Shown here piece after piece: positions 685 through 64,000 of a stretch of DNA of 64,000 nucleotides (positions are counted from its first letter, which is position 1; each line of letters starts with the position of its first letter). Source of the DNA: Escherichia phage phi456; sequence record OR339795; one strand, 5' to 3'. Both the position numbers and the translations under genes were made by a program. A model generated the notes under the pieces. The model had not been told where the DNA came from. It saw only the letters and a program-made list of their open reading frames with translations, and did not search any database.

Positions 685-3415
<2,731 letters not shown>

Positions 3416-4433: not shown

Positions 4434-4922
4434 GTGGCACAACGCGGTGTAAACAAAGTCATCCTGATTGGTACCCTGGGGCAAGACCCGGAGATCAGGT
4501 ATATACCAAATGGCGGAGCGGTCGGAAGACTCAGCATCGCAACGAATGAATCATGGCGCGACAAGCAAACGGGCCAACAGAAAGAGCAAACAGAATGGCA
4601 TAAAGTCGTTTTGTTCGGAAAACTTGCTGAAATTGCGAGTGAGTATTTACGAAAAGGTTCTCAGGTCTACATCGAAGGAAAACTTAAAACCCGTAAGTGG
4701 ACAGATGACGCCGGTGTAGAACGTTACACGACGGAAATTATCGTCAGCCAGGGCGGCACCATGCAAATGATCGGCGCTCGCCGCGACGATTCACAATTCT
4801 CAAATGGCTGGGGGCAGTCAAACCAACCTCAAAACCACCAGCAATACAGCGGTGGCAGTAAACCTCAGAGCAACGCCAATAGCGAACCTCCAATGGACTT
4901 TGAAGACGATATTCCATTTTGA
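4434..4922 (+). CDS. ssb: single-stranded DNA-binding protein
   Basis: GTG start; OB-fold N-terminus, Gly/Gln-rich linker and acidic C-terminal DDIPF tail. Confidence 0.95.
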
Positions 4923-5155: not shown

Positions 5156-6268
5156 TTAGAATTGGTAGGTCATACCAACAGCAACGATGTTGTCGGTTGC
5201 AACCTCAGATCTTTTGGTAAATTCACTTTCATCAATCAGGTTGATCTTGTAGTCAACGAAAGCGGACATATTTTTGTTGAAGTAATAAGTCGCACCCAAG
5301 TCGATGTATTCAACCAGATCCTGGCTGCCGAACGCACCAATATTTTCACCGCGAGAGTGCAGATAAGCGATGGACGGACGCAGGCCGAAATCAAACTGGT
5401 ATTGAGCAACAGCTTCAAAGTTTTTCGCCTTGTTCGCGATAAAGTCATCACCGAAGACAGTCATATTCTGAGTTTCAGAATAAGTTGCAGCCAGGTAAAT
5501 GTTATTTGCGTCATATTTCAGGCCAGTAGCCCATACTTCAGCAGTTTTACCAGAAGCATTCAGAGGATCCTTTTTAGCATAGGATACCTGCCCATCAGTA
5601 CGATCAGATTTTGCATAGGTTGCACCAACGCCAAATCCTTCATAATCGTAAGTAGCAGACAGACCAAAGCCATCACCATTAGATTCAACTACGTCACGGC
5701 CTTTCCAGTTGTTCACTTTTGCAGCACTATCATTTTTACCTTGATACTGCAAAGCAAAGTTCAGACCATCAACCAGGCCGAAGAAATCATTGTTACGGTA
5801 GGTGGCTACGCCAGTAGCACGCTGGGTCATAAATACATCGGTCTGAGTCCAGGTATCTCCACCAAACTCAGGCAGCACGTCAGTCCAAGCGCCAATATCA
5901 TAAGCTACACCATAGTTGCGACCATAGTCGATTGAACCATAATCAGCAAAACGGAGGCCAGCAAATGCAAGACGAGTTTTATCTTTATCAGAGCCCTCAG
6001 ATTCAGTACGGTTACCTTTAAATTCGTACTCCCACTGACCAAAACCGGTTAACTGGTCATTAATCTGAGTTTCACCTTTGAATCCCAGACGAGCATAAGT
6101 CTTATCTCCGTCATCACTAGCTGAAGAAGAGAAGTAATGTTCTGCGTTAACTTTGCCGTACAGATCCAGTTTATTACCGTCTTTGTTGTAGATTTCAGCT
6201 GCTTGCGCAGACATTGCCATCAGGACAGATGCTGCAACCGCAGAGAGTGCCACTGTGATTTTTTTCAT
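5156..6268 (-). CDS. outer membrane general porin (OmpC/OmpF/PhoE family)
   Basis: 370 aa; signal peptide ending AQA, then [29 protein letters not shown] motifs and C-terminal ...YQF barrel terminus. Confidence 0.9.
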
Positions 6269-60353: not shown

Positions 60354-60425
60354 TAGTTACAGTGTCACTTTTAATGCTGGTGGAGTGCGCCCACCAGCAT
60401 TTTTTTCGTCCAATGAGGAGGGCAT

Positions 60426-60932
60426 TTGAGTATTTTCAATAAACACGCACACCAGGAACGTCCGTACATCGTCATAGTAGATATTGATGGAACGATATCA
60501 GAGGCAACGGAAGACAGGCTGCATTTACTTCCACCACCTGGCAAAGGTGCATTAACAGAGCACTGGAACGAGTTTAACCTTGCCTGTGACACTGATGCTC
60601 CCATCACTCCAGTTATTGATATGGTGCGCCAGTTGTCCAGCATTTACACGCTCTGGTTTGTAACCGGGCGCTGTGAGATAGCCAGGGATAAAACACGAGC
60701 TTGGTTGCGTAAGCACGTAACAAACGGGGCTGAGCCTTTGCTATCTATGCGTCCTGCCACCGATGACAGAAATGACGGCCCAGCAAAGATTGATCTCCTT
60801 AAGAAAATTGGTATAAGCAAAATTGCGTTCGCGCTGGAAGATAAGATTGAAGTGGCGCATGTTTTCAGGAGGCACGGCGTGCTTACGTTAATGGTCAGGG
60901 AGTATGAAAATGCGCTTCTTCATCAACAATAA
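60426..60932 (+). CDS. HAD-superfamily phosphatase-like protein
   Basis: 168 aa; motif I VIVDIDGT (DxDGT), later FVTGR and K...D elements. Confidence 0.5.
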   Translation: MSIFNKHAHQERPYIVIVDIDGTISEATEDRLHLLPPPGKGALTEHWNEFNLACDTDAPITPVIDMVRQLSSIYTLWFVTGRCEIARDKTRAWLRKHVTNGAEPLLSMRPATDDRNDGPAKIDLLKKIGISKIAFALEDKIEVAHVFRRHGVLTLMVREYENALLHQQ

Positions 60933-60947
60933 TTGCTCTAATAAACC
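60931..60947 (+). promoter_or_regulatory. C1 operator-like site
   Basis: AATTGCTCTAATAAACC, overlapping the stop of the HAD-like gene and upstream of the small peptide ORF. Confidence 0.5.
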
Positions 60948-61030
60948 ATGATTTTTAAAAAAGAGAAAGTGAAAATAAAAACATGCCGCAAGGCGCGGCA
61001 TGTATCCAATCAATCACAGGAGCTGAAAAT

Positions 61031-61117
61031 ATGAACACGGCATTCAAAATCATTATGGCCGCGATCTATTTCTGGCTGTTCTCTATCACTTTTGGCGGCA
61101 TCGTCGCGCATGGGTAA
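61031..61117 (+). CDS. 28-aa hydrophobic peptide (candidate small membrane toxin or leader peptide)
   Basis: MNTAFKIIMAAIYFWLFSITFGGIVAHG; strong RBS AGGAG 9 nt upstream; structured leader CATGCCGCAAGGCGCGGCATG; not in the ORF track (under 60 aa). Confidence 0.35.
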   Translation: MNTAFKIIMAAIYFWLFSITFGGIVAHG

Positions 61118-61196
61118 GGGGAGTATATTAGCCATTTGAAACCCCACGGTCTCTTGCGGGTTTAATTAAGAACCCGCAAGAAAAACACGAATTGGG

Positions 61197-64000
61197 CTAT
61201 ATTTTTCCGCCTACGCCTTTAAACTTCTCAATAAACGAGACGATTTTCTGGAAAACTGCCTGTTTTTTCGTTTTATATTGCGGATTCAACGGACTAAGTT
61301 TTGGTAATGTTTCGTTTAATTCTGTGCCATTTTCTGTGGCATATTCGCGTTTTAAAGACGTGCGAATATAGCGTTTTGCTGCATCTTCATTGAGATTTTC
61401 TTCTTTTATCAATGCTTCTGCTTCACGTTGCTGTTCGCGTTGAGCAAACGTAAAGAATGCGTCAATGATGCTGGCTTTGTCCGGTAAATCATCCAGGTTC
61501 GTTTGCTGAATAAAATCGACCACCAGGCCCTCTTTAGCACGGTTCCCTAAGCTTGAACGAATTAAGCGTTTAACCTCTTCGATCATTTCGCCCTTGCCTT
61601 TATTTTGTCTGTTGTGTTCGAAAATCAGTCCAAGGATATAATCCAGGTTTATTTCCTGAGACTTCAGCAAATCGACCTCAAAAACTACGTCATCCCAGTC
61701 AGTGGTTGATTTCTCTTTTTTCTCAGCTTCTTTCTCACGGCGCTGCCAGTCGCGAATATCGTTATAGGCAGAACGATAATCCTGAATCTTGCGATCAGCA
61801 GGGAGACGAATTGTTTGCAATTCAGCGAGCTTTTCATCATCCACATAATGTTCTGCTTTGAATTTTTCTACTGCAACAGGATCGCTAAGATCGATTTGTT
61901 GCAGGGCTTTCAGCGTGGCAAATTCATCATAGTTTTGCAGGATGTTCTCGGCACGCAGGTATTCACCAAACAGTTTAACGAAGTCTTTCTTCTCTTTTTC
62001 ACTTTCAATACTGGCAGGGTCAGGGAACCGTTGTTCCAGTTCTGAAACTACTGCCATAAAGCCGCGCTTAGCTTCACCAGTGGCAGCATCAGTAAAGCCT
62101 TCCATATACTCTGCATAACTCTTTTCTAAAACCACATTTTTGGTGTTTTTGTCACCAAACAGCGTTATGGCAGCAATAGTTGAGCGTTCCAGATCCCGGA
62201 AAGTGACGATATTACCGAAGGTTTTAGTTGCATCATAAATACGGTTGGTGCGGGAAAATGCCTGCATCAAGCCGTGAAAACGCAGGTTTTTATCGACGAA
62301 TAGCGTGTTCAATGTTGGAGCATCGAAGCCAGTTAAAAACATCCCCACGACAATTAACAGATCGATATCCTGATTTTTAACCCGTTGGGCTAAATCGCGA
62401 TAGTAGTTCTGAAAACCGTTACCGTCGGTGCTGAAGTTAGTTTTAAAATAGCTGTTATACTCACGAATTGCAGCGTCAAGAAACTCTTTAGCACTGCTGT
62501 CCATTGCGCTGGTATCAAAAGTTTCATCGGAAATTTCACCAATGGCATTTTGTTCTTCATTGGCAGCAAAGGAGAAGATTGTCGCAACACGCAGCGGTTT
62601 ATAGGTAGCCGATTTATTAGCTGCTTCCTCTTGTAACCGTTTAAACGCCGCGTAATAGGCTTTTGCAGCATCCACGCTGCTCACTGCCAACATAGCATTA
62701 AAACCTTTTGAGCCAGGGAAGGTGCGGTGGGTTTTCTGGCGGAAATTATTCAGAATATATTGCGTGATTTCCTGTATACGCATGGGATGAAGAAACGCCT
62801 GCTGATTTTCAGCCGCACTTAGTTTTTTCTCGTCAGTTTCTGTCTCTAAAGACTTAAACTGTGGCCGCACATCGTTGTAGTCCACCTTGAATTTGAGCAC
62901 TTTTTCATCACGAATCGCATCGGTAATTACATACGAATGCAATTCACGACCAAATACGCTGGCGGTCGTTTCTGAGCCTAAGGCATTTTCCGGGAAAATA
63001 GGGGTGCCGGTAAAACCAAACTGATAATAGCGTTTGAATTTCTTCTTCAGGTTTTTCTGCGCTTCTCCAAACTGGCTGCGGTGACATTCATCAAATATAA
63101 ACACCACTTGCTGATTGTATACAGGCAGGTCGCTTTCTACTTTCATCAGGTTATTGAGTTTCTGAATAGTAGTGACGATAATTTTGTTATCCTCCTTATC
63201 CAGATTTCGTTTAAGGCCTGCGGTATTTTCCGAGCCGTTGACGCTGTCTGGCGAAAAACGCTGATATTCCTTCATGGTCTGGTAATCGAGGTCTTTCCTG
63301 TCGACCACAAAGAAGACTTTATCAATAAAGTCCAGCTCTGTTGCCAGACGCGCGGCTTTAAAGCTGGTGAGGGTTTTACCAGAACCGGTAGTGTGCCAGA
63401 TATACCCACCGCTTTCCGGTTTTGACCAGTTCTTCGCTGTAAAGGAACTCTTAATTTTCCACAGAATGCGCTCGGTGGCGGCAATCTGGTACGGTCGCAT
63501 CACCAGTAGCGTCTGACTACTGTCAAAAACGCTGTAGTTCACCAGAACATTCAGCAGAGTATGTTTCTGGAAAAAGGTAGCGGTAAAGTCTTTGAGGTCT
63601 TTAATCAGCGTGTTGTCTGATTTCGCCCAATTCATGGTGAAGTCAAAACTGTTTTTATCGCGCTTTGTCGTGTTGGCAAAATAACGGGTATCGGTGCCGT
63701 TAGAAATGACAAACAGTTGCAGATACTTAAACAGGGAATTTTCGCTGTTAAAACTCTCTTTACTGTAACGATGTATCTGGTTGAAAGCCTCACGAATCGC
63801 CACCCCGCGTTTTTTTAGTTCGATTTGCACCAGCGGTAAACCATTAACCAGGATCGTGACGTCATAACGGTTAGCATGAGAACCCGTCTGTTCAAACTGC
63901 TGGATAATCTGCACCTTATTGCGCATGAGATTCTTTTTATCTATCAAATAGATGTTCTCAAGTCGCCCGTCGTCAAAAATAAAGTCGCAGATATAGTCGA
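61197..64000 (-). CDS. hsdR: type I restriction enzyme R subunit HsdR (N-terminus beyond window end)
   Basis: Frame open to 64000; N-terminal nuclease-type motif [19 protein letters not shown]; helicase motifs [24 protein letters not shown]. Confidence 0.85.

Follow-up and report, generated by a model that had tools for sequence, protein, structure and literature searches.

The DNA examined here, 64,000 nucleotides (nt) of Escherichia phage phi456 (record OR339795; the window, in what follows), is that of a P1-like phage-plasmid. Near its right-hand end, between the phosphatase gene pap and the 3′ end of the restriction gene hsdR, lies a small open reading frame (ORF) of 28 amino acids. The first-pass annotation had proposed at this place a small hydrophobic peptide gene with an AGGAG ribosome-binding site, set behind a C1-like operator and a structured leader and flanked by a HAD-like gene and hsdR; all the features that it listed are there, with corrections of one or two bases to their coordinates, and its translation of the ORF and its naming of the neighbours hold. 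We conclude that the small ORF is probably the conserved first cistron of a C1-repressed early operon (the Op88/pmgT operon in P1), encoding a very small single-pass inner-membrane protein. The elements of this unit are, from left to right:

60932–60948, plus strand: C1 repressor operator Op88 (= OpmgT), ATTGCTCTAATAAACCA, at the position of the annotated protein_bind feature in the P1 record NC_005856.
60948–60976, plus strand: predicted sigma-70 promoter P1pmgT, placed by the P1 annotation and by hexamers that recur at fixed spacing.
60981–61003, plus strand: leader stem-loop ACATGCCGC-AAGGC-GCGGCATGT, placed by its fold and by a hairpin at the matching place in every lineage.
61006–61022, plus strand: conserved unstructured spacer CCAATCAATCAC with the Shine-Dalgarno sequence AGGAG (61018–61022), placed by nearly invariant alignment columns.
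61031–61117, plus strand: small ORF of 28 amino acids, MNTAFKIIMAAIYFWLFSITFGGIVAHG, with one predicted transmembrane helix; identical in P1, with orthologues in five other lineages.

The ORF runs from an ATG at 61031 to a TAA at 61115–61117. Its P1 copy (84392–84478) is identical at every nucleotide and has no coding sequence (CDS) feature in NC_005856. Other records treat it variously: the PGAP pipeline sometimes annotates it as hypothetical protein WP_001312275.1, and the SJ46 record holds a 44-amino-acid version labelled 'membrane protein'. This longer form, which would start from the ATG at 60983, was rejected, as that ATG lies inside the leader hairpin and has neither a Shine-Dalgarno sequence nor a counterpart in other lineages. 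The small ORF is found in all 18 Punavirus records of the phage collection, with identical peptides in 17 of them; the adjoining pap falls to 94.5% DNA identity among the same records. It is carried by 873 PLSDB plasmids and, with its full leader, by approximately 10% of complete E. coli genomes. From IMG/VR we drew 93 loci chosen by leader sequence alone, hence independent of ORF content. Among the 92 with a complete ORF, 78 peptides were identical, 13 had one to four substitutions and one was disrupted by an insertion; for those copies followed by pmgT, as in P1 (pmgT-type), the peptide was identical in 67 of 70.

We compared the locus across six diverged lineages, which are listed with their representatives (our locus labels in the form L105) and the length of the ORF:

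P1 and window lineage (window, NC_005856): 28 amino acids.
L105 lineage (Logan assembly of run SRR10079640): 48 amino acids.
Salmonella lineage (plasmid pCFSAN058588, L005): 46 amino acids.
Cronobacter lineage (phage JK004, L101): 53 amino acids.
L102 lineage (Logan assembly of run SRR31886163): 53 amino acids.
L103/L104 lineage (Logan assemblies of runs SRR26914674 and SRR25030782): 53 amino acids.

All six share one layout, consisting of operator, −35, −10, hairpin, CCAATCA, GGAGC, ATG and an open frame for a hydrophobic helix, and in each the ORF stands at the matching place and in the matching register behind GGAGC. DNA identity over codons 1–25 is 49–73%; M1, K6, A11 and W15 do not vary, and all have a hydrophobic stretch of some 20 residues. 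The proportions of synonymous (pS) and non-synonymous (pN) differences were 0.80 and 0.19 between P1 and L105, 0.63 and 0.17 between L105 and the Salmonella lineage, and 0.30 and 0.03 between L102 and L103. Likewise, the differences between P1 and the Salmonella lineage fell on codon positions 1, 2 and 3 in the numbers 10, 6 and 16, a contrast missing in the other five frames. This substitution pattern favours a gene and is supportive rather than conclusive. The arrangement is more than chance because the ORF, its ribosome-binding site, the hairpin and the operator recur together in six diverged lineages, and on this comparative evidence we take the small ORF to be a genuine conserved gene whose peptide frame is kept open in related elements. 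CDS JK004_94, as deposited in the JK004 record (MZ188976.1; L101 4443–4604), begins at an internal ATG (locus position 4488) and misses the helix; the conserved start, 45 nt upstream, gives a 53-amino-acid protein with the transmembrane helix.

The peptide belongs to no described family. When 1.84 billion representative proteins were searched with a profile, only P1-like relatives and one spurious repeat protein were found. The 28- and 44-amino-acid forms gave nothing above noise against Pfam, NCBIfam and PHROGs (phrog_27041 at E = 0.16 among the matches), and the longer orthologues (46, 48 and 53 amino acids) gave nothing above noise against Pfam and PADLOC; across these searches the noise also included YxzE (E = 0.076) and YAF2_RYBP (E = 0.08). 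Literature searches on Op88, pmgT and the peptide sequence, and on ribosome profiling or RNA-seq of P1, returned nothing on the small ORF.

Transcriptional control can be read from the sequence upstream. The NC_005856 annotation places OpmgT, formerly Op88, over two predicted pmgT promoters. The window operator ATTGCTCTAATAAACCA equals P1 ATTGCTCTAATAAATCT at 15 of 17 bases, with changes at positions 15 and 17; it is a 17-bp asymmetric ATTGCTCTAATAAATTT-like sequence lying over a sigma-70 promoter at the pap/pmgT intergenic position. The pattern ATTG[C/T]TCTAATAAAT is kept across lineages, and the first 14–15 bases are conserved in all six. What had been noted as C1-like is, by position, the documented P1 operator Op88/OpmgT; that C1 binds there is taken from the annotation of the P1 record. 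In the window, P1pmgT consists of the −35 hexamer ATGATT, a 17-nt spacer and the −10 hexamer GAAAAT at 60971–60976. The −35 reads TTGATT in P1 and most relatives and TTGTTT in JK004, and a −10-like nAnAAT hexamer (GAAAAT, AAGAAT, AATAAT or CAGAAT) stands exactly 17 nt from the −35 in all lineages, behind spacers of differing sequence. The promoter scores below the threshold of a simple promoter scan. At 60946–60953 the window and plasmid pHFQ1 are alike in a rare change to the operator 3′ end and −35, AAACCATGATT in place of AAATCTTGATT or AAATATTGATT; the promoter is probably weakened by this operator/−35 variant, which 2 of 87 sequences have. The locus is the same as that of the P1 Op88/OpmgT operator and PpmgT promoter, which serve the pmgT-pmgU-pmgV operon: operator, promoter positions and leader are approximately 98% identical to P1 84286–84482. 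The P1 annotation, however, treats the ∼150 nt from the promoter to pmgT as untranslated, whereas our analysis places a conserved small gene there.

The leader hairpin has 9 bp and a 5-nt loop, and the 63-nt leader that holds it folds at −20 kcal/mol (z = −3.0). In every lineage it starts 5–7 nt past the −10. Its arms are almost wholly different between lineages (CATGCCGC/GCGGCATG, GGCCAC/GTGGCC, GGCCGC/GCGGCC, TTGGCAGTCAC/GTGACTGCCAA and GGCGGTCGC/GTGACCGCC), and each pair folds. In an alignment of only seven sequences, 7 of 11 pairs were altered on both sides, and 77.6% of alignment cells paired in the hairpin register compared with 11–40% when the register was slid. CCAATCA, GGAGC and the ATG are conserved after the hairpin; 61006–61022 is mostly unpaired in the folds, and the Shine-Dalgarno sequence, 8 nt upstream of the ATG, is touched by weak local pairs only. 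Both the good ribosome-binding site and the structured leader of the first-pass annotation are real. Since comparative promoter placement would put the transcript start at the base of the hairpin, we read it as most likely a 5′-terminal stabilizing stem-loop. The ompA 5′ untranslated region is an example of such an element, and the likeness extends to the layout, with a stable hairpin within a few nt of the 5′ end (predicted here) followed by an unstructured ribosome-binding region.

The predicted product is a small hydrophobic peptide. The mean Kyte-Doolittle score over 19 residues is 2.0–2.3 in all orthologues (2.1 for the 28-amino-acid form) with a low hydrophobic moment, in agreement with the small hydrophobic peptide first proposed. 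AlphaFold2 run on the family alignment gave one helix, spanning residues 2–27 of the 46-amino-acid orthologue, with predicted local distance difference test scores of 85–92 for the first 20 residues and a low-confidence tail. Outside P1, the lineages have a tail of 18–28 amino acids that is hydrophilic and mostly acidic; the P1-lineage product stops three residues past the helix. Helix flank charges range from 0 to +1 on the N-terminal side and from 0 to −2 on the C-terminal side across orthologues. An N-in, C-out single-pass topology appears likeliest. With no more than 50 amino acids, one predicted transmembrane helix and conservation as a protein, the P1 peptide would class as a small single-pass membrane protein; 'small membrane modulator', as it was first described, would be a reasonable name. 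MgrB, AcrZ, MgtS, MgtR and PmrR are single-pass peptides of ∼30–50 amino acids that act through helix–helix contacts. The conserved aromatic and small helix residues of the P1 peptide fit that style of small regulatory inner-membrane protein, but in contrast to them it has no homology to these proteins and no known partner, is phage-encoded and is predicted to be expressed only on derepression. Holins are encoded with endolysin under late (Lpa-dependent) promoters and have one or more transmembrane helices with a charged C-terminus. We rejected a holin or lysis-cassette protein here, given a C1-controlled sigma-70 early promoter beside pap and pmgT, no lysis genes nearby and a P1-lineage product that lacks a charged C-terminus.

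In every lineage the next gene begins 0–8 nt past the stop codon of the small ORF or overlaps it; in P1, the pmgT ATG follows the stop by 8 nt. Further downstream runs a chain of short overlapping early genes, encoding a winged-helix-like protein, Ea22-like, DUF551 and DUF4752 proteins, D12 methyltransferases and a protein with an N-terminal GmrSD-type domain (PF03235). From this arrangement the small ORF appears as the fixed opening cistron of a C1-gated operon that is otherwise very variable. In the non-P1 lineages (L005, L091–L094 and L102–L105) it heads long early-gene chains, whose content differs between close relatives; the operon is therefore read as a variable accessory one.

We propose that in the lysogen C1, sitting on the operator that overlaps the −35, would keep the small gene off. 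Upon inactivation of C1 the sigma-70 promoter would fire and give an mRNA starting at, or within ∼3 nt of, the stem-loop, which most likely would protect it from 5′-end-dependent decay. The unstructured CAAUCAAUCA spacer and the GGAG Shine-Dalgarno sequence would drive translation, and the peptide would insert as one helix with K6 on the cytoplasmic side; the acidic tail of the non-P1 lineages would then be periplasmic, the P1 lineage having the helix only. A stop codon 0–8 nt from the next start would feed ribosomes into the variable early genes downstream. For the peptide itself, a likely target early in lytic growth would be the host membrane or a protein in it. In the window, the body of the operon has been replaced by a convergent type I restriction–modification cassette, which would leave the gene stranded as a monocistronic unit with a weakened −35.

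Several observations weigh against this interpretation. Among IMG/VR loci L106–L184 the peptide is altered in 10 of the 20 copies that adjoin an hsd cassette (hsd-type) versus 3 of the 70 pmgT-type copies. The simple promoter scan prefers another promoter-like site, at 60904–60933; were that promoter used, the leader hairpin would be internal, the transcription start at the hairpin base being a prediction only. With its ATGATT hexamer the window copy may be poorly expressed, and the P1-lineage product, which lacks the tail kept elsewhere, could be a partly disabled remnant. Only 25–28 codons can be compared, so the pS and pN values are noisy; distant pairs are saturated, and for these the +1 frame sometimes shows a similar contrast. 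Finally, the literature searched gave no evidence of expression, translation or localization, and the biological role that we propose is putative.

The first alternative, which we think unlikely but not negligible, is that the gene in the window and in other hsd-type elements is a stranded relic, a promoter and ORF that have drifted without function since the hsd replacement; this would be compatible with a functional gene in P1. The excess of altered peptides in hsd-type copies fits such a history, as the changes (G22D four times, G23D twice, G28R, T20I and others) include two, G22D and G23D, that put a charge in the helix. Operator and −35 variants are also commoner in hsd-type copies, the window has its rare ATGATT −35 and altered operator 3′ end (the variant found in 2 of 87 sequences), and on IncF plasmids IS1 has truncated the ORF to a remnant without a start, which adjoins hsdR. 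However, a frameshift or stop codon was found in none of the 20 hsd-type copies, and the peptide of the window is the consensus sequence. Variants in the hsd-type group number eight non-synonymous and seven synonymous (three and four in the pmgT-type group), giving a pN/pS of ∼0.36 rather than ∼1; synonymous variants too are more numerous there, and the group may simply be older or more diverse. Relaxed selection in hsd-type copies is suggested by these counts but not shown.

Alternatively, only the act of translation might matter, through coupling of ribosomes to pmgT or the downstream genes or through shielding of the mRNA from Rho, the small ORF being a purely regulatory upstream ORF with a functionless peptide. 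The close spacing or overlap with the next start in all lineages would be expected of such an ORF, and the C-terminal part is freely replaceable, P1-lineage tails consisting of 0, 10, 11, 21 or 37 unrelated residues. We nevertheless consider this explanation improbable: the helix is under purifying selection, with K6, A11 and W15 invariant at 50–60% nucleotide identity, the peptide is identical in the 67 of 70 pmgT-type copies mentioned above, and the frame stays open in all 20 hsd-type copies, which have no downstream gene to couple. Attenuators form alternative terminator and antiterminator structures in the stretch from the leader ORF to the structural genes, and outside its regulatory codons the sequence of their peptide is free to vary. 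A leader peptide acting as a transcription attenuator was rejected as well, as only 0–8 nt separate the stop from the next start, the sense strand has no terminator and the helix is under purifying selection.

Far less probable is a type I toxin–antitoxin system, the likeness drawn by the first-pass annotation, in which a membrane-damaging peptide toxin would have its translation checked by an antisense RNA from the opposite strand. The peptide has small size, hydrophobicity and a single helix in common with Hok, TisB, Ibs or ShoB. In the P1 lineage, moreover, the leader hairpin has TTTTTATTTTC after it on the minus strand. Both the window and P1 copies score there as an intrinsic terminator, which could end an RNA antisense to the ribosome-binding site and ORF, and in hsd-type elements read-through from hsdR would be antisense to the ORF. 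The search for an antisense promoter that had been recommended nevertheless left the minus strand of the window, P1 and the Salmonella lineage (L005) without a promoter-like site and gave matches at chance level in JK004, consensus scans being weak evidence. The T-run on the minus strand arises as the complement of the A-rich −10 region in the sense promoter; the Salmonella and JK004 scans do not show it, and by eye it is missing from L102–L105. The hairpin is conserved without the T-run, so that selection would act on the hairpin itself and on the sense strand; a terminator for an antisense RNA or for hsdR fits the P1 lineage only and was rejected as its conserved role. No toxin family (Hok_Gef, Ldr, TisB, Ibs, ShoB, Fst or others) in Pfam, NCBIfam, PHROG or PADLOC was matched (E ≤ 10) apart from noise, and no antitoxin RNA in Rfam at a permissive threshold. 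The sole Rfam match, to GcvB on the minus strand at 60975–61058 (20.3 bits against a cut-off of 42, E = 0.036), is sub-threshold and was judged a chance match driven by the shape of a terminator-like hairpin with a T-run. Enterobacterial type I toxins (Hok/Gef, TisB, IbsC, ShoB, LdrD, DinQ and ZorO) share with the P1 peptide a length of ∼20–50 amino acids, a single hydrophobic helix and carriage on plasmids or prophages, but it has no sequence relationship to them and no detectable antisense RNA gene. Rather than an antisense RNA, the C1 repressor would control its gene, at transcription and in common with lytic genes; the gene is the first cistron of a long operon, and its Shine-Dalgarno sequence is open, whereas that of type I toxins is sequestered by a long folded leader. 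Because no conserved antisense promoter or terminator was found, the toxin–antitoxin reading is unsupported.

That there is no gene at all, only a chance frame in a non-coding leader with hairpins that terminate convergent genes, is hardly credible. In its favour are the very small size of the ORF, the lack of a CDS at this place in the reference P1 annotation and the stability of both hairpins on both strands; but the frame is open in six lineages with a conserved start context, conservative substitutions and changes concentrated at third codon positions, the reverse frames contain stops and both hairpins lack a U-tract on the sense strand.

The 3′ end of the small gene, read as the conserved first cistron, coincides with a sharp border between modules. 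The P1 lineage has at least eight downstream forms (P1 pmgT, hsd, L046, L095, L097, L099, L198 and L199), and six of the eight diverge right after …CATGGGTA, that is, after the first two bases of the stop codon. The pmgT and hsd types (L001 and L004) share five more bases (TAAGGGG) before they diverge. The border in the window and the six junctions are as follows; the bases after the break are given in lower case, and a slash marks the break in the right-hand source.

61116–61121, strand unassigned: module junction; P1 homology ends at 61121, and other modules diverge after GGGTA (61112–61116).
L046: TAG ttcgg; right-hand source P1 pmgT nt 740, GGATA/gttcgg.
L095: TAT tcgag.
L097: TAC tgggt.
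L099: TAT accgt; right-hand source nt 3099 of the L095 array, CTTGT/taccg.
L198: TAT cagaa; right-hand source just upstream of humD, GTGTA/tcagaa.
L199: TAC ccgat; right-hand source P1 pmgT nt 395, CGATA/cccgat.

Four of these junctions lengthen the peptide by 10–37 unrelated residues. The four right-hand partners listed are interior sequences of other arrays, which points to independent deletions or joins with 1–3 nt of (TA-type) microhomology. With at least seven different downstream modules meeting the small ORF there, the geometry is thus one of a left end fixed at GGGTA/ and variable right ends. Junction variants without TAA gave one match in IMG/VR and none in JGI metagenomes. Selection for keeping the ORF does not by itself predict an endpoint fixed to a single nucleotide, and a recurrent break at GGGTA/ is one possibility. 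A lox, cix or attI-like site was rejected, the junction bearing no resemblance to any of them by eye. We raise as a speculative idea, itself doubtful, that operator, promoter, hairpin and ORF form a fixed C1-gated expression platform whose GGGTA/ edge is a specific point of breakage or recombination. If so, a site-directed nick or double-strand break would be implied (made, for example, by a free-standing homing-type nuclease or another site-specific activity), through which P1-type phage-plasmids would have their early accessory genes trimmed and exchanged. Gene swapping of this kind at the edge of the small ORF would loosely resemble the attI slot of an integron.

P1 pmgT itself (L001 3228–4157) looks mosaic. 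Counted from the third base of the stop codon of the small ORF, nt 1–394 are not common to other arrays, nt 395–705 match the gene that comes first behind the small ORF in L199, and the sequence from nt 705 matches the 3′ part of a 310-amino-acid gene in L097 and L099. P1 pmgT may be the product of deletions in a longer ancestral array.

Much at this locus is already known, namely the operator, the promoter and the variable region, and the window itself is mostly ordinary, as its operator and its variable region are known and its small gene is a hypothetical one. The new findings are modest: a gene for a predicted small membrane protein, conserved and without a family, that is absent from the P1 reference annotation, a covarying 5′ hairpin, and a recombination border sharply fixed at the ORF stop codon. 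Although P1 is a heavily used tool, its curated annotation shows this place without a gene. With its position at the head of an early operon under repressor control, a conserved membrane peptide would be a new candidate for a part in host takeover, superinfection exclusion or membrane remodelling. P1-like plasmids, which bring the peptide into approximately 10% of complete E. coli genomes, also spread resistance genes. The operon behind the peptide is their main variable accessory slot, holding methyltransferase, Ea22-like and DUF551 genes or, in the window, a restriction–modification system of type I, and the expression and rearrangement of this slot bear on phage-plasmid evolution.

Three further features frame the unit in the window:

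60426–60932, plus strand: pap, HAD/PNKP-type phosphatase; an ORF with a 96–98% match to P1 pap, and Pfam HAD_PNKP on orthologues.
61152–61181, strand unassigned: inverted repeat with a 12-bp stem and a 6-nt loop, placed by its fold (z = −5.5 on the plus strand and −5.1 on the minus strand).
61197–64000, minus strand: hsdR, type I restriction subunit; an ORF annotated as HsdR in pHFQ1.

A megablast search with 60400–61300 returned 18 Punavirus records at 94–98% identity and 951 plasmids. The ORFs upstream are in P1 order (ppp, pmgQ, pmgR, pmgS, pap), and pap closes the preceding C1-controlled pmgR-pmgS-pap operon. Identity to P1 spans 60400 to 61121 and does not continue beyond; there, a type I cassette, hsdR-hsdS-hsdM, stands in place of P1 pmgT through humD. 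The hsdR gene is convergent with the small ORF, has its stop codon at 61197 and continues past the end of the window. The pmgT-through-humD stretch is variable region 8, or RD-5, of P1-like phage-plasmids, and the pap-hsd-phd arrangement of the window is one of its described replacements (PMC9603915, PMC6906374). The passages that term searches found in these two papers do not mention the small ORF, nor a left border fixed to one nucleotide at its stop codon.

An inverted repeat at 61153–61180 with a 10-bp stem had been noted after the peptide gene in the first-pass annotation. The repeat exists, at 61152–61181 and with a 12-bp stem, but it belongs to the hsd cassette and lies outside the conserved unit of the peptide gene: it is present in all hsd-type copies, those on IncF plasmids included, and P1 lacks it, because P1 homology ends at 61121. 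It stands 16 nt beyond the hsdR stop codon and has a U-tract on neither strand, and it is therefore read as a 3′-end hairpin between convergent transcripts.

The best full-query match was plasmid pHFQ1 (NZ_AP023428.1; 99.9%), in which the order is pap, small ORF, a convergent hsdR-hsdS-hsdM cassette and then phd-doc. pHFQ1 is typed IncHI1B/MOBH. In addition to a segment of P1 backbone it has bcsC, several IS1 copies and the reverse transcriptase of a group II intron, a mix suggesting that the element is rearranged or a hybrid. Conjugative IncF plasmids (L003, NZ_CP020496.1 ∼5950–6164; ∼324 PLSDB plasmids) also contain the type I hsd cassette of the window, and their copies keep the start-less remnant of the small ORF next to hsdR, cut at codon 3 by IS1. 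According to notes in the P1 record (NC_005856), the R124/3 and EcoDXXI hsd loci have the same hsdR flank.

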